Shown in pieces: positions 3,304 to 45,699 of a DNA stretch of 64,000 bases. The notes under the pieces are model-generated. The model saw only the letters and a list, made by a program, of their open reading frames with translations. It ran no database searches and was not told the origin of the DNA. This DNA comes from Verrucomicrobiota bacterium (GTDB lineage Bacteria; Verrucomicrobiota; Lentisphaeria; JABSQK01; JAJFLO01): assembly GCA_021772635.1 (NCBI GenBank), contig JAJFLP010000109.1:7317-71316 (forward strand), given 5' to 3'. How positions within the stretch are numbered: position 1 is the first letter of the stretch; every line of letters begins with the position of its first letter. The translations under genes were made by a program, and so were the position numbers.

Positions 3304-3484
3304 TCTAGCCTGAATAATTCACCAGTATTCTGCTACGAGCCCTAATCTCTGCTCAAATAAACCGATTGGCTTGGCTTCACATCTTAGTGAATGAAAATTC
3401 ACTTTCACCGTGGCGCCTTCTCCAATCGTCTTATTATGAACGAGTTAAGTTCTCTCGCGACGAATCGCGTGAATTAATCAGGCG
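3304..3484. mobile_element. ~185-bp MITE-like element with ~18-bp terminal inverted repeats (CTAGCCTGAATAATTCAC ... GTGAATTAATCAGGC), copy 1
   Basis: Near-identical full copies at 38575-38758 and 54414-54595, with a partial inverted fragment at 25780-25830. Carries an internal GTGAATGAAAATTCAC palindrome. No coding capacity. Confidence 0.5.
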
Positions 3485-3567
3485 TAGTCCCGTGACCGCG
3501 GGATCGTAGGTTCTTTGTAACTCATTTAGACATGCTCGCAGTAGAAGCTTTATGCATAGAGCACAGG

Positions 3568-6500
3568 CTAGACCGTCGCCGCTGACTCAGGTTTTTGGTT
3601 GTTCGCGGGCTGACGGTAGAGGGCGCGAATATCTTCTAGAATCAGATAATTTACCGGTACAAGAAACAGTGTTATCAGTGTCGCGAACAATACCCCGAAT
3701 CCAAGCGACACGGCCATTGGAATAAGAAATTGAGCTTGTGTGCTTTTTTCGAGAATCAACGGTGTAAGCCCGGCGAACGTTGTCAGAGATGTCAGTAGAA
3801 TCGGTCGAAAGCGAGCTGTCCCTGCGATCCGTACGGCATCGGAAATCGGGGTGCCTTCGTTTCTACGCTTATTGACATAATCGACGAGCACGAGACTGTC
3901 ATTTACAACGACGCCGACTAACGCGAGAATACCGAATAGACTCATCATACTCAGTGACATGTCCATAAGCATATGCCCCAGTATGGCCCCTGAAATGCCG
4001 AATGGAATTACGCTCATGACGATCAAAGGCTGTAAGTAGGACCGGAATGGGATTGCCAGCAGGGCGTAGATAGCGAAGAGCACAAGTAACAATCCACTTT
4101 TCAGAGATCCGGTCGACTCTCTTACATCTTTCGCTTCGCCCTCAAGAGAAAAGCGAATGCTTGGGTACTTCCCTAGAATCTTGCCGATGTTCTCGACCAG
4201 GTCTTTCTGTAAATCAGCCATATTCACTTTTTTCTTGTCAACATCTGCAATTATATTAGTCGTCCTGTTTCTATTGACGCGCGAGATTTCAGCATATCCG
4301 CGGCCCATTTCCACATCAGCGACATTCTCGAACGGCACTTCGACGCCTGTCTTTGTCCGTATTTTCATGGAATCGATAGTGCTTATCGATTTTCGTTCGT
4401 TTTCCGGGTATCGAATCATTACCCGGACATCGTCACGGCCTCTTTGAATTCTCTGGGCTTCCTCGCCGAAAAACGCCTGCCGCACTTGACGCCCGAGGTC
4501 TGCAGAGTTTAGTCCCAGCAACTCGGCTTCGGGTTTGATCGTTAGTCTGATCTCCGCTTTTCCGCCTTCGAAACTGTCACTGATATCGAACACCCCCTGA
4601 TAGGAGCCTAAGAATGTTTTTATTTCATCGGCTGCCGACTCCAGAGCTTTGAAATTCGTCCCGGATAGTTGGATGTCAATCGCCTCGCTACGGTGCCCGA
4701 TTTCAGCGCGGATACTGAGTTTCGATTCGCCGGGTAGCGGGCCGATGAGATCACGCCATTCGTTCGATATTTCACGTACTGATGCGTCAATTGTGCGTTC
4801 TTCCGGCGGGACAATTTGCATTCGGACGCGCCCGAGATGTGATTTTCCACCGCGGCCTCCCGACGAGCCGGCTGAGGACAGAATTCCGGAAACAACGCTG
4901 ACGTTCGTAGTTGGATCTACGTATTTGTCGCGAATAACGCCCGCTACTTCAGTGATCCGTTGCACGTAGGAGTTTGTGACGTCGAAGTCAGTTCCTAAAG
5001 GCATTTCCAGAGTCACCGTTATGACCTCGTGTTCGACCCGCGGGAAAGGCGTCCACCCGATTCTCCCGCCAAGCGCCATGCTGAGTAGTATCGCGAGAAT
5101 TCCGAGAAAGATGGCGAGAGTCACATATCGCCAGTTCAATGCATGATGTAGCGCTGGCCGGTAGAATCGGATGATGAAAGTTTCCAAGCCAGTCGCGAAC
5201 CTGCTTTGAAAACGAAGCAAAAAGTTTTCTTTAGTTTCGTCACGTGGTCGCATATGTTTGAGGTGCGACGGTAGGATAAGTTTAGACTCTATCAGGGAAA
5301 ACAGGAGCACTGGTATTACGACCAGCGGAATAGATTGAAATATCGGGCCACGTCGGCCGCCGAGCATCAGTAGCGGGATAAACGCAACCACGGTCGTGAG
5401 AACCCCGAATATGACGGGAACGGCTACTTCGAGACTTCCGTTGATCGCTGCTTCTTCCCCCGACTTGGATTTTTTCAAATGCGCGAAAATATTCTCGCCA
5501 GTTACGATGGCGTCATCCACTACGATACCGAGGACGAGAATAAACGCGAAAAGGCTGATTATATTGATGGTCACACCCAAAAATGGTAGCAACGCGAGGG
5601 CGCCGAGGAACGAAACCGGGATTCCTATACATACCCAGATTGCGACGGTCAACCGGAGGAACATGGCTAATAGCAAGAATACGAGTATCCCCCCCTGCGC
5701 TGCGCTTCTAACCAGGGTCTTTAATCGGCTTTTGACGATCTTCGAACGATCTCGCCAGTAGTGGAGTTTTATCCCCGCGGGGAGCGCGTTCTGTGTCTCA
5801 TGTATGTACTCTTTTATCTTGTTCGCGACCGTGATAGCGTTTTGCTCTCCGACCCGGTATACGTCCAGTATCGCAGCCGGCTCGCCATTGAATCGCGTGA
5901 TCATCGGGGTCTCCTCGAAGTCGTCTCTGACCAGGGCGATGTCGCCAATCCTGAGGTCGGTTCCATCTTTTCTTGAGATTATCGGGATATTGTCAAAGTC
6001 CTGTTTCGTGTACGCCTGACTCAGTGTTCGGAGAAGGATTTCGCCTCCTTTGGTTTTTATAGCGCCGGCTGGCAAATCCAAAGAAGAATTGCGAATTGCG
6101 GTAGATACTTCGGCGAAGGTTAAGTTGTATTCTTGCAGCGTCTCCTCAGAAAGTTCTATCGAAATTTCATATGGCCGGACCCCGGTTAGCTCCACTTGTG
6201 TGATTCCGGGTATGCTAAGAATATCGTCACGAACACGTTCGGCTATGATTCGGAGATCCTTCTCAGAAGCGTCGCCGGCGACAATAAGAGAAATTACTTC
6301 ATGGCGTCTTTGCTCAATTGTATAGACGGGTCTCTCAATTTCGTCCGGGAAAGTTGTGATCGCGTCGACCCGGTTTTTTATGTCATCGAGAAGGTCCCGC
6401 GGTTCATAACCATTCTCAATTTCAAGGCTTACTGTTCCGATACTTTCCGCCGCAGTAGATCTGATCTCCTTGATCCCCTGTACATCCTGAATCGCTTCTT

Positions 6501-6711: not shown

Positions 6712-6889
6712 AAGAAATTATAGGATTGACGATTTTCGATTGACATTGCATTGCTCGCACGTACCGGGCCCGTCTCATACTCCCAGGAGTATTCGGCTGC
6801 CGATTTTCGATTGAAAAATACCCTTCGATCTGTACTGATTCCGATGTTTGGGAGAACGAAGTGACGGCCTAAACGCTTACATCTTTCCG

Positions 6890-7270
6890 GATCGACGCTA
6901 CAGATTGCACAGGCGTTAGAGTTCGCGCTTTAGCGCGTCTTACCCCCTAGTTCCTAACCAAAATGTCCCCAGTGTCTAGGAAACTAGGCAACGCACGTTC
7001 CCGGGCCGAGTCCTCTTAAACCTTATCGGATCTTTGTTTTTGTATTAACAGACTCAGCGGAGCGCGTCGGTCGACGCTCCTCTGAAACTTCGTCATTTTG
7101 ACACACTAAAGTGTGAACTCCAACGAGCACTTCAGCATACCAGCGAATTCGTGTTACAGTGATCGCTGTTGGAGTTCGCGCTTTAGCGTGTCGTATCTAA
7201 AGTTTCCTATTATATTAACAGAGTCAGCGTCACCGGCTCGGTCGACGCTCCTACGAAACTTAAACGGTTT
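6890..7270. repeat. Intergenic block of REP/REPIN copies (GTTGGAGTTCRCGCTTYAGCGTG cores, one inverted doublet at 7103-7195) interleaved with a second ~55-bp direct repeat (TTAACAGASTCAGCG...GACGCTCCTMYGAAACTT at 7037-7095 and 7213-7265)
   Basis: Same core as the arrays flanking the RAYT gene at 18.1-19.4 kb. The inverted pair at 7103-7195 is separated by ~45 bp. Confidence 0.5.
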
Positions 7271-7444
7271 TGAGGCTGTTAATCGCGTTCGATTCGGATC
7301 GATCGTGCGGCTTTTGGAGTTCAAGCTTCAGCGCTATTTGTTGATTGGCAGAGGCAATCCTGCATGCGGGATTGAACTCCAAAATTCTGGCGAATTCGAA
7401 GTTTCTACCTATAATACTCACAGGCATCGCCTGTGGTCCAAGCT

Positions 7445-7535
7445 CCTTGAAACTTGGCGGAAATCTTCAATATTGAGAGCCCGTTTCGTATTGTAAAATG
7501 TGGGTTAAAAAGGAAACCCACTGGTGGGCTCCTCT
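7445..7535. repeat. Repeat family A sub-module (CTTGAAACTTGGCGGAAATCTTC...TGTAAAATGTGGGTTAAAAAGGAAACCCACTGGTGGGCT)
   Basis: Three near-identical copies at 7445-7535, 23328-23412 and 24375-24460. Contains the CCCACTGGTGGG palindrome. Confidence 0.55.
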
Positions 7536-7536
7536 A

Positions 7537-11008: not shown

Positions 11009-11305
11009 CTAAAATAGTACTTAAACAAACATTTGTTTGAAATATATATCGAAGCAGGTCGGCGTCAATGATTTTTTTCGAAATGGACTCGGGGTGCAAT
11101 GAGAGAAGCGGAAGATTTGGGGAGGAAACAGACGTATCAGCTCGCTTATTTGTGTCAACAAATCTCACTAATCCAGCCGCCGCGTCTTATGGTGATGCGG
11201 TTACAACGCGACACATGTCAACTCCACTAACTTCATTGATACAGCCTGATCTCAATGTCATTAAGTTAACGAATTGTATATGTTCGGGGCTGTCTGAGTT
11301 CACGC

Positions 11306-12538
11306 TTAAGCGTTATCAAAACGTTGTACCACGAGTGTGGCGTTTGTACCGCCGAAACCGAAACTGTTCGACATTACCGTACTTAACTCAGCGTTATCAA
11401 TACGCTCGCGTACGATTTTTACACCATCGGCGCCGGGATCCAGTTCAGTGATGTGCGCGGAAGCGCAGACGAAGTTGTGCGCCATCATTAATAAGCAGTA
11501 AATCATTTCGTGAGCACCGGCGCCTCCCAGGGAGTGACCTGTTAGCGATTTGGTTGAACTGACATACGGCGAATCATCGCCGAAGACAGTTTTGATCGCC
11601 TCGAGTTCGCGTATGTCACCGATTGGCGTACTCGTCCCGTGAGTGTTGAGGTAATCAATTTTGCGGCCACTTTCCAAAGTTGACAGGGCTGTTCGCATAC
11701 ATCGAACTGCGCCTTCGCCGGATGGTTGCACCATGTCGAAGCCATCCGAAGTCGCACCATACCCCACGACCTCACCGTATATTTTCGCGCCGCGGTTGAC
11801 GGCGTGGTCGAGTTCCTCCAAAACGATCGTCCCGCCACCACCTGACGCGACAAAACCATCGCGGGTCACATCATAGGCGCGGGAGGCAGTTTCCGGTGTA
11901 TCATTGTACTTAGACGATAGAGCGCCCATCGCATCGAAGGGCAGGGTCGTAGTCCAGTGCAGCGATTCCCCGCCGCCAACAAACATTATGTCCTGTCGCC
12001 CGTCGCGAACTAGCTCGTACCCGTTGCCGATACAGTGTGCGCTGGTCGCACATGCCGAGCTTATTGTATAGCTGACGCCTAAAATCTTGAAACCGGTCCC
12101 CAAACATGCCGAATTTGTGCTCGACATTGTTCTCGGAACCATATACGGACCTACTTTACGAATCCCTCTGGACCGCAGAATATCGGCCATTTGAACGACG
12201 TGCTCAGTCGACGCCGCCCCGGAACCACAAATTAAACCTGTGCGCGCATTCGATACATTATCCGGCGGTAATCCTGAATCAGCGACTGCTTGCTGCATCG
12301 CGACGTAATTGAAGGCCGCACCATCGCTCATAAATCGTTTGATCTTCCGATCGATTAGCTCACTAACATCCAATTTTATGGATCCGTGAACGTTCGACCG
12401 AAACCCGAGTTCCGCGTATTCCTCGGAAAACTCGATTCCAGATTTGCCGTTTCGTAGCGACGTTAATACTTCTTCTTTGCTATTTCCGATGCTGCTAACA
12501 ATACCGAGCCCGGTTATCACTACTCGTCTCATTATCAT
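11306..12538 (-). CDS. fabB: 3-oxoacyl-ACP synthase I (KAS I)
   Basis: Thiolase fold with active-site Cys context [13 protein letters not shown] and His/His motifs ([22 protein letters not shown]). Lies immediately downstream of fabA, as in proteobacterial fabA-fabB operons. Confidence 0.8.
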
Positions 12539-18149: not shown

Positions 18150-18545
18150 AACTCGCGACCTTGGGGTTATGAAATGCCGGTCGAAGCGCCCGTTGGAGTT
18201 CACGCTTCAGCGTGTGTTTTTGAGGAAATCCCATCGGTTGATCGATGACACATCCCGCGACCTTGGGGTTATGAAATGCCGGTCGAAGCGCCCGCTGGAG
18301 TTCACGCTTCAGCGTGTGTTTCCGAGGTAATCCCATCGATTGATCGATGACCCATCCCGCGACCTTGGGGTTATGAAATGCCGGTCGAAGCGCCCGTTGG
18401 AGTTCACGCTTCAGCGTGTGTTTTTCATATTCAAGTTTTTTTTAATGTAGACGCAAAGAGAAAAGACTCACACTAAAGTGCGAACTCCAACAGCGATATC
18501 GCCAATAGAAGCGCCCGTTGGAGTTCACGCTTTAGCGTGTGTTTT
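18150..18545. repeat. REP array upstream of the RAYT gene: ~2.5 tandem units of ~114 bp each ending in GCGCCCGTTGGAGTTCACGCTTCAGCGTGTGTTT, plus an inverted REP doublet (REPIN) at 18470-18545
   Basis: Direct reading: CGCGACCTTGGGGTTATGAAATGCCGGTCGAAGCGCCCGTTGGAGTTCACGCTTCAGCGTGTG occurs three times. The REPIN is ACTAAAGTGCGAACTCCAAC-N25-GTTGGAGTTCACGCTTTAGCGTG. Confidence 0.7.
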
Positions 18546-18578
18546 GAATTATTCGAAACGCTTTAGATCCGAGCAATT

Positions 18579-19184
18579 ATGTATAATTGGCGACAAATGT
18601 CTTCAAAACAACGTGAAGATGTGTTGCGGATGCGCAAAATCAACCGGGTGCCGTGGCATAGCCCGCCACACCGCGATGGCGACAGTACGCGCTTTCATAT
18701 AACGGCTGCTTGCTATCGACATCAGCCGGTTATCGGTTTTGATCGCGCTCGAATGTCGAATTTCGAATCGGTGCTGTTGGAAAAAGTTGACGCTTCTGCT
18801 GATAGGATCATGGCGTGGGTGGTACTACCGAACCACTATCATATCCTGATTCGAACCGATAATATCAAGAGTTTCTTGCATCAACTTGGCCGATTTCACG
18901 GGAGTATGTCATATAGCTGGAACGGCGAAGAGAACCGGCGTGGCCGTAAAGTATGGTGCAATGCGTTGGAGCATGCGATCAAGACTGATCGCCACTTTTG
19001 GGCGACCCTAAATTATATTCATCACAATCCCGTTCGGCACGGATATGTAGATAAATGGCAAGACTGGCCGTTCAGCAGCGCGCTGAAATATCTCGAGTCA
19101 GTCGGAAGGAAACGGGCAAAGGAGGTTTGGAAGGAATTTCCCATCCGTGAATACGGAAAGGATTGGGATCCACCGGGAATTTAG
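18579..19184 (+). CDS. REP-associated tyrosine transposase (RAYT; IS200/IS605-like HUH Y1 transposase)
   Basis: HUH motif LPNHYHILI and C-terminal helix FWATLNYIHHNPVRHGYV, as in TnpA_REP. Flanked on both sides by arrays of the same REP sequence. Confidence 0.8.
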   Translation: MYNWRQMSSKQREDVLRMRKINRVPWHSPPHRDGDSTRFHITAACYRHQPVIGFDRARMSNFESVLLEKVDASADRIMAWVVLPNHYHILIRTDNIKSFLHQLGRFHGSMSYSWNGEENRRGRKVWCNALEHAIKTDRHFWATLNYIHHNPVRHGYVDKWQDWPFSSALKYLESVGRKRAKEVWKEFPIREYGKDWDPPGI

Positions 19185-19204
19185 AATTCGCGTCCTGCTG
19201 CTAG

Positions 19205-19410
19205 TAGACGCAAAGAGAAAAGACTCACACTAAAGTGCGAACTCCAACAGCGATATCGCCAATAGAAGCGCCCGTTGGAGTTCACGCTTCAGCGTGTGTT
19301 TCCGAGGTAATCCCATCGATTGCCCGGTGGCACATCCCGCGACCTTGGGGTTCTGAAATGCCGGTCGAAGCGCCCGTTGGAGTTCACGCTTCAGCGTGTG
19401 TTTTCGAGGT
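19205..19410. repeat. REP array downstream of RAYT, comprising one REPIN doublet (19205-19295, matching 18456-18545) followed by two direct REP units
   Basis: AGACGCAAAGAGAAAAGACTCACACTAAAGTGCGAACTCCAACAGCGATATCGCCAATAGAAGCGCCCGTTGGAGTTCACGCTT is present on both sides of the RAYT gene in direct orientation. Confidence 0.7.
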
Positions 19411-20792: not shown

Positions 20793-21038
20793 ATGAAAAC
20801 AACAATCGATATTGCTAACAATATTATGGTCCGATCAAAGAAGCTTTCTCGGCGTCAGAAGGTCACCTTTAAGGCCTTGGTGGAAGAGGGCCTTGAGCTG
20901 GTCTTAGAAAAACGCACTGCGAAGGGAAAATACAAGGCGCAGCCAGTAACGTTTGCGGGAGCGGGTCTGAGCGGCGAGTATAAGAAAGCTTCATGGGAGA
21001 AAATCAGAGAATTGGCCTATGGAGATCGGGGCGGATGA
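20793..21038 (+). CDS. Type II antitoxin, VapB/RHH-like (MKTTIDIxD-type)
   Basis: 81 aa with N-terminus MKTTIDIANNIMVRSKKLSRRQ. Stop overlaps the next ATG in an ATGA 4-bp overlap. Confidence 0.6.
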   Translation: MKTTIDIANNIMVRSKKLSRRQKVTFKALVEEGLELVLEKRTAKGKYKAQPVTFAGAGLSGEYKKASWEKIRELAYGDRGG

Positions 21039-21475
21039 TCGCGGTGGATACGAATATACTCGTATATGCTCACCGGGAAGACTCAGAGTGGCACAAGGAG
21101 GCTTTGTCGGCATTGATTGAATTGTCTGAGGGAACCCAGCGTTGGGCGATTCCATGGCCATGTATTCATGAGTTCGTTGCGATCACTACGCATCCAGCGA
21201 TTTACTCACCACCGAGTCCTCTTGAGACTGCGCTAGCGGCGATCGATAATTGGCTGAATTCCCCCACCTGCCATCCGATTGCCGAAGGCCCCGATTACTT
21301 CTCATTATTGACGGATTTATCGAAATCGGCGAAGACAAAAGGGCCGATGATCCATGATATTCGGATCGCGGCGATTTGCTTGCACAATGGTGTCAAGGAA
21401 CTTTGGACTGCCGACCGGGACTTTTCGCGCTGCAAAGAGCTGAAGACGCTAAATCCTCTTATTGCCGCTATTTGA
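21035..21475 (+). CDS. PIN-domain toxin VapC
   Basis: Starts MIAVDTNILVYA (first acidic PIN residue); later catalytic acidic residues in DIRIAAICL and TADRDF. Track ORF start 20993 lies upstream of the coupled ATG. Confidence 0.8.
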   Translation: MIAVDTNILVYAHREDSEWHKEALSALIELSEGTQRWAIPWPCIHEFVAITTHPAIYSPPSPLETALAAIDNWLNSPTCHPIAEGPDYFSLLTDLSKSAKTKGPMIHDIRIAAICLHNGVKELWTADRDFSRCKELKTLNPLIAAI

Positions 21476-23919: not shown

Positions 23920-24002
23920 TTCAGGGTACGTGGAGCCTTTTTTAACTTACATTTCACGAGGAACAATTGCCTGAGTCGGCTCGGTGTCGTCGGTTAATAC
24001 CA

Positions 24003-24158
24003 AATGTCACTAAGTTAAGGAAATGAGGCGAGTTCAGGACGCATGTTGGAGTTCACGCTTCAGCGTGGTCCTTAAATTCCTAAAAAGAAACACCACGCTG
24101 AAGCGTGAACTCCAACGGCCCCGAACACATACAAATCCTTAACTTAGTGACATTGCGG
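24003..24158. mobile_element. REP-derived MITE: inverted REP doublet (GTTGGAGTTCACGCTTCAGCGTGG / CCACGCTGAAGCGTGAACTCCAAC) framed by ~25-bp terminal inverted repeats (TGTCACTAAGTTAAGGA...)
   Basis: Whole element is a ~155-bp imperfect palindrome. Second copy at 26868-27018; truncated copy at 11240-11320 abutting the fabB stop. Confidence 0.55.
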
Positions 24159-24511
24159 TTAATGCATAACGATATCCTTTTCAGGTTTATTGTTTCTAGC
24201 AAATTCCGATAGAATAAGATCGAAAATCGTCCCGTATCAACGGGATCCCGCCTTATGCGGGGCAAACCTGTCCGGCGAACCTATACCGCAAGCGGTACAA
24301 TTTTTGGAGGACTTGCAAGTAACCGCGTATAGGATGCCGAACGATATATTTTAGCCACCCGGGCGACGCCTCCCTTGAAACTTGGCGGAAATCTTCGACA
24401 TTGAGAGCCCGTTTCGCATTGTAAAATGTGGGTTAAAAAGAAAACCCACTGGTGGGCTGGTCGAAAACTCAAAGGCGTTTAGTATAAAAAAGTGAAGACG
24501 GATCGAAATTA

Positions 24512-26558: not shown

Positions 26559-26867
26559 ATTGGGAGGAGAGTCGACATCGAAAGCCTCTCTTATTGATAG
26601 GCCACGCCAAGTAGGCAAGGCCTTTATCGTGCGACAGTTAGAGAACGACTGGGCTTCTGCGGGTTGGATAACTTTATTCTATACGGAAAGTCACGGAGTT
26701 TTCGACCAGGCGTTCTACTGGTAAGCAGAATGCCGGTTGAAAATATACCGTTCGGAGTCTCTTACGCAATCATTTTGAAGTCGTCTCTCTCCGCACGAGC
26801 GGAGTCTCTGTCATCTGAATCGTATTCTCGGAGTCCGCTTATGCGGGACGGGTAATATCAATGTCAC

Positions 26868-27018
26868 TAAGTTTAGGATTTGTATGTGTTCGGGGCCGTT
26901 GGAGTTCACGCTTCAGCGTGGTATTTCTTTTTAGAAACCTAAGAACCACGCTGAGGTGTGAACTCCAACATGCGCCCTGAACTCACCTCATTTCCTTAAC
27001 TTAGTGACATTGCGGGTA
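26868..27018. mobile_element. REP-derived MITE, copy 2 (see 24003-24158)
   Basis: CAATGTCACTAAGTT...GTTGGAGTTCACGCTTCAGCGTGG...CCACGCTGAGGTGTGAACTCCAAC...AACTTAGTGACATTG. Confidence 0.55.
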
Positions 27019-27049
27019 ATCCGGACTAAAAATTGTACCGCTTGCGGTA

Positions 27050-35219: not shown

Positions 35220-35280
35220 AATTCCTTATTTTTATATGATAAAATATATTTTTAAAGATGTTTTTTCAAATCGCAAATCT

Positions 35281-35308
35281 GAACCCTGAACCCTGAACCC
35301 TGAACCCT
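35281..35308. repeat. Heptanucleotide tandem repeat (GAACCCT)x4
   Basis: GAACCCTGAACCCTGAACCCTGAACCCT, between helicase stop and vapBC promoter region. Confidence 0.65.
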
Positions 35309-35314
35309 GTCTCT

Positions 35315-37752: not shown

Positions 37753-37808
37753 TCACGAATCACGCATCACGAAATACCTACCACGAACCACGAACCACGA
37801 ATCACGTA
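37753..37808. repeat. Degenerate heptanucleotide tandem repeat (CACGAAY)x~8 abutting the EF-hand gene start codon
   Basis: CACGAATCACGCATCACGAAATACCTACCACGAACCACGAACCACGAATCACGTAG then CCC ATG. Confidence 0.6.
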
Positions 37809-44745: not shown

Positions 44746-45699
44746 ATGCGCGGCGGCGCGATTGGAGATTTCGTCTTTACGCTTCCGGCGATTGACGCTC
44801 TTCGACAACACTTCCCGCATGCAAAATTAAGAATTATCGGTTCACCGTCGATAGCTGCGCTTGCGAAACCCGATCAGATCGTAGATCATAACAGCGCCGC
44901 TGTTTCGGGTCTCTATTGTGGAGACAGCGATTTCCCCGAAAACACCCGTGATTTATTCGCGGACGCCGACTTGGTGATCGCTTACGCCGTCGATCCCGAC
45001 GGTGAGCTCACCGACAATCTTTGCACGCTATGTAACTGTGCGGTCTCAGTTCATGATCCGCGCATTTCGGACGGTAGCGTTATTCATATCTGCGACCATT
45101 TACTCTCTCCTATTCATGAACTCGGTATACCCGTCGCTAATCGTGATCCCCGTATTGATCAAAACTTCGGGGTCACACCTGGAAACTTCGGGGTCACACC
45201 TACGCTATTGACAGATCCGACTAGCGACTTTGTCAATAGCGTAGGTGTGACCCCGAAGTTTCCCAAGTTTATAGTGATCCACCCGGGCAGTGGGGGGCGA
45301 CACAAGTGTTGGCCGATCGAAAATTTCGTCGCGCTTTTCAGGGAGATTGAAGCCGTAGGATATCGGGTGGTTTTCGCGAGTGGACCGGCAGAAGAATCGT
45401 CGGTCAACGATTTAAGAAGGATTCTGCCAGATGACTCTACCATTTTACGACCAACCGGTATATTAGAGCTTACCGCACTAGTCGCGAGCGCCGACTTGTT
45501 CATAGGCAACGACTCTGGTCCGGGCCAGATCGCCGCGGCCGTCGGGATACGAACCTTGTTGCTTTTCGGCCCGACGGATCCAAGGATATGGGCACCACGC
45601 CACGGGCATGCGCATTATCTGCAAGCTAAATCGGGTGAAGTCGGCGATATCTCGGTTATCGAGACGCAACGACGCGTGCTTCAAATCTTAGCGGAATAG
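44746..45699 (+). CDS. Glycosyltransferase family 9 (LPS heptosyltransferase-like) carrying an in-frame palindromic insertion
   Basis: MRGGAIGDFVFTLPAIDALR N-terminus and C-terminal GNDSGPGQIAAAVG, typical of GT9. Residues NFGVTPGNFGVTPTLLTDPTSDFVNSVGVTPKFPKF are encoded by a ~100-bp imperfect palindrome. Confidence 0.65.
   Translation: MRGGAIGDFVFTLPAIDALRQHFPHAKLRIIGSPSIAALAKPDQIVDHNSAAVSGLYCGDSDFPENTRDLFADADLVIAYAVDPDGELTDNLCTLCNCAVSVHDPRISDGSVIHICDHLLSPIHELGIPVANRDPRIDQNFGVTPGNFGVTPTLLTDPTSDFVNSVGVTPKFPKFIVIHPGSGGRHKCWPIENFVALFREIEAVGYRVVFASGPAEESSVNDLRRILPDDSTILRPTGILELTALVASADLFIGNDSGPGQIAAAVGIRTLLLFGPTDPRIWAPRHGHAHYLQAKSGEVGDISVIETQRRVLQILAE
45161..45262. repeat. ~30-bp-arm palindrome plus 22-bp direct duplication embedded in-frame in the GT9 gene
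   Basis: AACTTCGGGGTCACACCTACGCTATTGACA ... TGTCAATAGCGTAGGTGTGACCCCGAAGTT, preceded by a partial direct copy AAAACTTCGGGGTCACACCTGG. Confidence 0.6.

Follow-up and report, generated by a model that had tools for sequence, protein, structure and literature searches.

A probable REPtron in a Lentisphaeria genome: a RAYT gene bracketed by short REP hairpins

Systems composed of a REP-associated tyrosine transposase (RAYT; REP, repetitive extragenic palindromic sequence) and of REPINs, in which two inverted REPs form a hairpin, serve as the main bacterial model for mobile DNA that is "domesticated", long-lived and inherited vertically. To our knowledge, nearly all detailed work on RAYTs and REPINs concerns Proteobacteria. 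Here we describe a RAYT (TnpA_REP) gene and its REPs in a 64,000-nucleotide stretch from a Verrucomicrobiota bacterium of the Lentisphaeria (GenBank assembly GCA_021772635.1, contig JAJFLP010000109.1, positions 7,317 to 71,316 of the forward strand). This whole stretch is called the window, and coordinates refer to it unless a related locus is named. With a probability of roughly 85%, we consider the locus to be a REPtron, namely a chromosomal, single-copy and catalytically intact RAYT gene bracketed by its cognate REPs. It would then be a clean, intact example of a RAYT/REPIN system from the Planctomycetes-Verrucomicrobia-Chlamydiae (PVC) group, and would extend a small and little-studied RAYT subclass earlier sampled only in Cyanobacteria.

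The REPtron of Escherichia coli comprises a single-copy gene encoding TnpA_REP (YafM; PDB 4ER8), which lacks a tnpB partner and is bracketed by REPs and bacterial interspersed mosaic elements (BIMEs), each REP being a 5' tag followed by a hairpin (PMC3479197). Residues H59/H61, Y115, N119 and H123 of 4ER8 were named as the HUH motif, nucleophile and metal ligands, and the AG of the GTAG tag pairs with the CT cleavage site (PMC3479197). Likewise, the group 2 and 3 RAYTs of Pseudomonas and Enterobacteria are single-copy genes flanked by inverted REP doublets and accompanied by dispersed doublet hairpins of 55-75 bp (PMC3116915, PMC5581495; Bertels & Rainey 2011; Bertels et al. 2017). Among the TnpA_Y1 transposases, subclass 2.8 is defined by NHYH, a length of about 199 aa, a proline-rich N terminus and YIHYNP, and its members in the sample of Quentin et al. 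(2018, PMC6006769) come from Cyanobacteria only. The REPs flanking subclass 2.8 and 2.7 genes, such as GTAGTAAGCAC-TTTA-GTGCT, GTAGTGAGGAC-TTCA-GTCCTC and GTAGTTCATTC-TTTA-GAATG, are built of a tetranucleotide, 1-2 nt, a 5-6-bp stem and a TTTA or TTCA loop, for example GTAGTAAGCACTTTAGTGCT and GTAGTTCATTCTTTAGAATG (PMC6006769 supplement). GTAG-type REPs and tyrosine transposases have been reported in Rhodopirellula baltica and Opitutus terrae (Di Nocera et al. 2013, PMC3733652), and therefore REPtrons in the PVC group are not new in principle.

The RAYT gene of the window (18579-19184, plus strand) encodes a 201-aa protein that displays HYHILI at residues 86-91, NYIHHNPVRHGYV at residues 145-157 and a PWHSPPH motif near the N terminus. 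From the first two motifs, a previous sequence-only reading of this DNA had proposed a RAYT within an intact REPtron, and this is supported by family, fold, active site and flanking REPs. The protein scores 83.3 bits (E 1.5e-23) with the NCBIfam equivalog NF047646 (REP_Tyr_transpos, cut-off 80), while the IS200-type Pfam family PF01797 (Y1_Tnp) gives 17.3 bits, under its gathering cut-off of 23. E. coli TnpA_REP is the only sequence match in the PDB (4ER8, E 6.5e-7), and the alignment places H86/H88, Y146, N150 and H154 opposite E. coli H59/H61, Y115, N119 and H123. The predicted active site is thus made of the HUH motif H86-Y87-H88, the catalytic Y146, N150 and H154, and the protein carries the class-2 Y---NP signature (Y146-IHH-N150-P151). 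LPNHYH, Y146, N150, H154 and PWHSPPH are invariant in an alignment of 28 family members, and the full-length open reading frame (ORF) holds every family-invariant and active-site residue. In agreement with the sequence match, 4er8_A is the top Foldseek match (E 3.7e-9, TM 0.65) of an AlphaFold model (AF2, pLDDT 85.7), the next being the TnpA proteins of ISDra2 and IS608 at E values of about 1e-4 to 2e-4, that is 4-5 orders of magnitude weaker. The neighbouring genes encode an FAD/4Fe-4S oxidoreductase (Pyr_redox/4Fe-4S) and a DUF547 protein, with no tnpB adjoining the RAYT gene, and tblastn finds a single RAYT copy in the window. The grouping with TnpA of tnpB-carrying IS200 elements, envisaged earlier as the alternative, was accordingly not seen. 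Because NF047646 is passed and Y1_Tnp is failed, and 4ER8 is the best match in both sequence and fold, the sequence and model comparisons support a RAYT rather than an IS200 TnpA. The protein is the only member of its 90% cluster (one contig), its nearest relatives being 62-65% identical, and searches of 72,556 plasmid and 50,697 phage records returned just three and one weak, partial matches, respectively.

The window RAYT shares with E. coli TnpA_REP the HUH/Y1 fold, the H-u-H, Tyr, Asn and His residues and the organisation of the locus. In contrast, the two proteins are 22% identical over the fold alignment, the window RAYT has about 35 extra N-terminal residues that include PWHSPPH, and among E. 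coli W94/Q95, E100, H101 and R104 just the E and H are kept, the R being replaced by K. The REPs differ as well, with a 5-bp stem where E. coli REP stems are longer and imperfect, and with the tag GTTGGAGTT where E. coli has GTAG at the hairpin foot. Judged by published motif description and by REP design, the protein appears closest to the little-sampled subclass 2.8, with which it has in common NHYH, a length of about 199-201 aa, a proline-rich N terminus and Y-I-H-x-N-P, while its REPs agree with those of subclass 2.7/2.8 in stem length (5 bp), TTYA loop and spacing. It deviates by WC where 2.8 members have W[YH] (several relatives have WY), by YIHHNP instead of YIHYNP, by the tag GTTGGAGTT, which reads GGAG/GTTG and not the GT[AG]G of subclass 2.8, and by its taxonomic setting, with relatives in Verrucomicrobiota and Acidobacteriota, where the 2.8 members of the published sample are cyanobacterial. 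With IS200/IS605 TnpA, the common features are the HUH/Y1 superfamily and hairpins that lie subterminally at either end, on one strand; yet the window RAYT has Y---NP and not Y----Q, a Y1_Tnp score below the cut-off and a weaker fold match, with no tnpB beside it and no multiple copies seen in the window. Finally, it is of another subclass than the RAYTs of Pseudomonas and Enterobacteria, and the window's dispersed doublets, unlike theirs, are nested in shells that resemble IS4-type miniature inverted-repeat transposable elements (MITEs).

The surroundings of the gene were delineated in detail. Upstream lies a tandem array (18154-18423, plus strand; Tandem Repeats Finder, 95% identity), each unit of which includes one forward REP (GTTGGAGTTCACGCTTCAGCGTG; 18192-18214, 18294-18316 and 18396-18418) followed by a T-rich tail. 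The sequence-only reading had described about 2.5 units of 114 bp; the array stands, with 2.6 copies, although its unit is 102 bp long. It had also recognised an inverted doublet upstream of the gene, which we locate at 18469-18491 (minus) and 18517-18539 (plus), with a 25-nt interval. This doublet lies within the left copy (18447-18544, plus strand; z = -5.2 when folded as single-stranded DNA, ssDNA) of a direct repeat whose right copy (19204-19301, plus strand) contains a second doublet, 19226-19248 (minus) and 19274-19296 (plus), again 25 nt apart. The flanking repeat itself had been announced at about 90 bp, whereas it extends over 98 bp with one mismatch (97/98 identical). The doublets are found 40 nt upstream and 42 nt downstream of the RAYT gene, and the downstream doublet repeats the upstream one directly, instead of being the mirror image previously described. 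Similarly, the two further downstream units reduce to just one full 102-bp unit, from REP 19274 to REP 19376-19398 (19274-19398, plus strand).

Spacer, doublet, RAYT gene and doublet together form an 878-bp module (18419-19296, plus strand) that interrupts the 102-bp array, its start coinciding with the 3' end of one REP and its end with the 3' end of another. When position 18418 is joined to 19297, the resulting unit is 95/102 identical to its neighbours, while the actual continuation after 18418 matches at 44/102 positions, and therefore the module sits within the REP array. Such an arrangement fits either recombination or duplication from REP to REP around a resident gene, or a past movement of the module. 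Besides, 16 terminator-like sites are predicted at the locus where 1.7 would be expected, and every one is a forward REP with a TGTTTT tail. By their T-rich tails, these REPs resemble intrinsic terminators, and as such they may insulate the RAYT gene from the upstream gene.

The REP consists of the 9-nt 5' tag GTTGGAGTT, a 5-bp stem, a TTYA loop and the return stem. At up to 3 mismatches, the 23-mer has 12 matches in the window, when compared to none in 100 shuffles, and a covariance model built from REP variants detects 15 copies at E<1e-4 in the 64 kb (0 expected), together with 3-4 degenerate copies. All copies fall between 6.9 and 27 kb, and they are intergenic, including 15/15 of the strong ones, several next to the 3' end of a gene or in the gap of an operon, in keeping with the intergenic preference that the sequence-only reading had put up for checking. 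A lone REP hairpin is energetically unremarkable (-4.9 kcal/mol, z -0.95), in contrast to the strong folds of the doublets (z -5 to -14), and the reality of the REP hairpin thus rests on covariation and not on energy. In 940 kb of DNA examined, 216 of 269 GT[T/A]GGAGTT sites are followed by a perfect 5-bp stem (0.7% by chance), with at least 10 stem variants at a fixed spacing. Double-sided, compensatory changes occur in four of the five stem pairs, and 0/500 shuffles do as well; since the alignment used for pair counts was pre-selected for full pairing, it is 100% paired by construction, and the informative values are the compensatory-change counts and the 216/269 ratio. Across 176 REP copies, no conserved cleavage dinucleotide was detected 5' of the tag, and the motif GGAGTTCACGC was not found printed in the literature searched. 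When put in register with the subclass 2.7/2.8 REPs, the GGAG of GTTGGAGTT would occupy the place of GTAG, with the AG kept.

We then compared eight related loci whose RAYTs are 48-62% identical to that of the window. Two of them are paralogues (60% identical to each other) that share one 8.78-Mb genome, another comes from a Verrucomicrobia metagenome-assembled genome (MAG), and a further one encodes a protein labelled Blastocatellia. In all eight, REPs of the same design flank the RAYT gene within about 10-600 nt, which brings the association to 9/9 loci with the window. The relatives' REPs have the same paired 5-bp stem and TTYA loop behind a tag of 9-10 nt, the tag variants beside GTTGGAGTT being GTAGGAGTT (at the paralogue locus L118), GTTGGTGTT, TTTGGAGTT and TT[C/T]GGTGTA. 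The stems vary from genome to genome yet remain complementary (CACGC/GCGTG, CATGC/GCATG, CACGG/CCGTG, CAAGC/GCTTG, CAGCC/GGCTG, CACGA/TCGTG, CCTGC/GCAGG and CCGAC/GTCGG), and these compensatory differences support the hairpin. Tag, closing C:G pair and loop are fixed in the sampling of RAYT loci, while the other stem pairs vary freely. Direct repeats also surround the relatives' RAYT genes, at a spacing of 704-812 bp.

Some relatives show rearrangements of their own. At L118, a second copy of the last ~135 nt of the RAYT ORF and of the start of its downstream flank lies directly upstream of the gene (2659-2800 versus 3470-3612 of that locus, 96-97% identical, 812 bp spacing), and the downstream REP doublet recurs at 82% identity; the pattern resembles what a partial tandem duplication of the module would leave behind. 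Tandem arrays of 78-105-bp REP units adjoin the RAYT genes of two other genomes, L117 (3624-4214) and L123 (3080-3394 and 2299-2454), and such arrays seem to be recurrent in the clade. As for its extent, the Blastocatellia-labelled locus (L122) shows the RAYT clade reaching Acidobacteriota.

The distribution of the REP was followed with the pattern GTTGGAGTTCRCRCTTYAGYGYG in one genome per species (596 Gb), matches being taken as 8-kb stretches. The exact 23-mer is present in at least 116 stretches from at least about 60 assemblies, with about 0.5 chance matches expected. Among the matches listed, roughly 23 assemblies are labelled Planctomycetota, 30 Verrucomicrobiota and one Lentisphaeria; a few carry other labels and may be mis-binned. 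A RAYT gene is found in 1/116 of the REP-bearing stretches among these matches, and therefore the REP copies are dispersed away from the gene. The scanned genomes also contain 54 convergent doublets of 55-105 bp that end at GTTGG tags with little outer symmetry and are plain REPINs. We considered whether an identical 23-mer in two phyla reflects surprising conservation or horizontal transfer, and regard the identity as less remarkable, as the stems vary freely while tag and loop are fixed; many genomes will share one stem because just 3-4 pairs are variable, and the scan pattern also selected that stem. Single exact 23-mers were seen in MAGs labelled Bifidobacteriaceae, Acidobacteriaceae and Solirubrobacteraceae (L013, L077, L014 and L081), which may be mis-binned PVC contigs or genuine REP carriers from beyond the PVC group.

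A possible mode of action can be sketched from that of E. coli TnpA_REP. Inverted REP pairs would form REPIN hairpins, and the RAYT would bind the folded REP in ssDNA and read the 5' tag, in which an invariant AG is placed at 2 nt from the stem, in the register of the 2.7/2.8 GTAG. Cleavage and rejoining of ssDNA would proceed via a 5'-phosphotyrosine on Y146, and this activity may generate, amplify or maintain REP doublets and ~100-bp tandem arrays, near the gene and elsewhere. The short REP, a 9-nt tag and a 5-bp hairpin with natural compensatory variants, should lend itself to the biochemistry of tag and hairpin reading.

Away from the module, REP copies are present at 6915-7383, 11292-11314, 24045-24116 and 26898-26969, as the sequence-only reading had noticed. 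The first site is a BIME-like cluster with REPs at 6915 (plus), 7102 (minus) and 7168 (plus) and degenerate copies at 7313 (plus) and 7355 (minus), which fills the 825-nt gap (6712-7536) that separates the membrane-fusion gene from the AcrB-type gene in an efflux operon of the resistance-nodulation-division (RND) type. At 24 kb, a 72-bp REPIN (24045-24116) is enclosed in a 154-bp MITE-like shell (24002-24155) that is bounded by the 19-nt terminal inverted repeats (TIRs) CAATGTCACTAAGTTAAGG and flanked by 8-bp direct repeats CGGTTAAT (23991-23998 and 24156-24163); as ssDNA the element folds at -50 kcal/mol (z = -13.9). A second shell with its REPIN (26898-26969) lies in the opposite orientation at 26859-27012, between 8-bp direct repeats CGGGTAAT (26849-26856 and 27013-27020), and folds with z -9.8 including the shell. 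Both 24045-24116 and 26898-26969 have the two inverted REPs, short spacer and long hairpin of a REPIN, while the arms of the 154-bp element between TIRs and REPIN are not mutually complementary. The copy at 11 kb is half a shell (11253-11314, plus strand), made of TIR, arm and degenerate REP, and abuts the 3' end of a fabF-like gene. TIR CAATGTCACTAAGTTAAGG occurs five times in the window, where none would be expected. Four contigs were recovered when metagenomes were scanned for the TIR sequence. One of them, L127, holds a complete 1.87-kb insertion sequence (IS) with the TIR at both ends, an 11-bp target-site duplication (TSD) and an IS4-family transposase (NF033592, 234 bits, cut-off 115). 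On the three others, from another metagenome, the TIR bounds MITEs of ~145 bp that occupy three different sites, one with a 9-bp TSD. The interior of these MITEs is a doublet of canonical GTAG REPs, unlike the REPIN of the window.

Certain of these data weigh against the REPtron interpretation. The tag GTTGGAGTT is not the canonical GTAG, so that the guide nucleotides proposed above are putative; the 878-bp module resembles an insertion into a REP array and would also fit a module that moved as a unit; and the three dispersed copies at 24 kb, 27 kb and 11.25 kb carry hallmarks of DDE-type transposition. TIRs and target duplications are the signature of DDE transposases, and HUH/Y1 elements make neither. 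The sequence-only reading had held the RAYT responsible for all scattered REPs, and this probably does not extend to the three shell copies, which have IS4-type TIRs and, for the two full ones, 8-bp repeats. Since these features are present, the last move of the shell copies was probably made by an IS4-type DDE transposase with the REPIN as a passenger, and we slightly favour the view that this family, acting through the TIRs, spread these elements, which the RAYT would then not explain. The window elements have what is expected of IS4-type MITEs, namely a TIR identical to that of L127, flanking direct repeats and no transposase inside, and the existence of MITEs with the same TIR and a GTAG REP doublet at three metagenomic sites points in the same direction, as does the REP found in all three window copies, which implies that shell and REPIN were copied together. 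However, CGGTTAAT and CGGGTAAT are nearly identical and 2-3 extra nt separate the left repeat from the TIR, and for these reasons the 8-mers could belong to the element itself or mark a favoured target instead of being a clean TSD; moreover, no IS4 transposase was found in the window, and the 54 REPINs of this REP family in other genomes lack such a shell. These copies caution against crediting every REP copy to a RAYT.

The insertion-like appearance of the module (doublet, gene and doublet, about 0.76-0.88 kb) raises another question, namely whether it is an autonomous IS200-like element that landed 3' of an array REP and not a domesticated gene. Its flanks are 97/98 direct repeats with hairpins on the same strand, reminiscent of the left and right ends of IS200/IS605, excision of 18419-19296 restores the 102-bp array, and relatives are bracketed by similar direct repeats, that of L118 taking in ~135 nt of the ORF. 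In addition, one 8.78-Mb genome has two paralogues, and RAYT identity does not track phylum, the Verrucomicrobia- and Blastocatellia-labelled relatives being 55-56% identical. Nevertheless, we regard this explanation as unlikely: the gene fails the Y1_Tnp cut-off, has no tnpB beside it and is near-absent from plasmids and phages, and direct repeats could also arise by recombination between REPs. Current autonomy in particular is unlikely, given that just one copy is present in the window and that close relatives are absent, the 90% cluster having one member and the nearest relative being about 65% identical. We give still less credit, and in fact very little, to the notion that the hairpins are host regulatory elements under selection, terminators or mRNA stabilisers, next to an inactive relic of a RAYT gene. 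The excess of terminator-like sites, all of them REPs with T-rich tails, and the intergenic placement of the REPs, several at gene 3' ends or in the operon gap, would agree with such a role. On the other hand, the ORF is full length with all its family-invariant and active-site residues, gene and REPs are associated at 9/9 loci across phyla, and a terminator would have no use for the conserved 9-nt 5' tag. We retain the REPtron as the most probable interpretation of the locus.

A wider proposal can be put forward, although only tentatively, as we consider it somewhat more doubtful than not. A RAYT clade spanning Planctomycetota, Verrucomicrobiota and Acidobacteriota would keep a frozen recognition code, made of the 9-nt tag TTGG[A/T]GT[T/A], the C:G closing pair and the TTYA loop, while the inner stem drifts by compensatory change; in the genome of the window, IS4-type MITEs would have captured REPINs, so that HUH and the unrelated DDE enzymes both spread the hairpins. 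If this is true, the second, metagenomic MITE family, with the same TIR and another REP doublet, makes REPIN capture recurrent and not accidental. The clade-wide tag and loop code, and the REPINs nested in IS4-type MITEs, would be two modest additions to what is known.

The window is otherwise ordinary chromosome, with the efflux operon, fabA/fabF-like genes, glutamate dehydrogenase, histidine kinases and topoisomerase III. The nearest relatives of this topoisomerase III are no more than 57% identical, and those that bear names belong to Planctomycetaceae or Planctomycetota, which taken by itself would point to a deep-branching planctomycete as the probable host. The RND efflux operon (OEP-MFP-AcrB) is on the minus strand with a TetR-family gene immediately upstream of OEP, and its 6712-7536 gap also contains a second direct repeat of ~60 nt (7024-7090 / 7194-7261). 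Short perfect or near-perfect tandem repeats occur at 35279-35309, 37753-37806 and 45162-45201, with units CTGAACC (x4.4), TCACGAA (x7.7) and a 21-bp unit (x1.9). Finally, 1.6 kb downstream of the RAYT gene, an 81-aa ORF overlaps a 160-aa PIN-domain ORF (Pfam PIN, 30.6 bits; 20793-21475), a pair that looks like a VapBC-type toxin-antitoxin module; PemK and PIN genes are also found directly upstream of the L117 RAYT gene.

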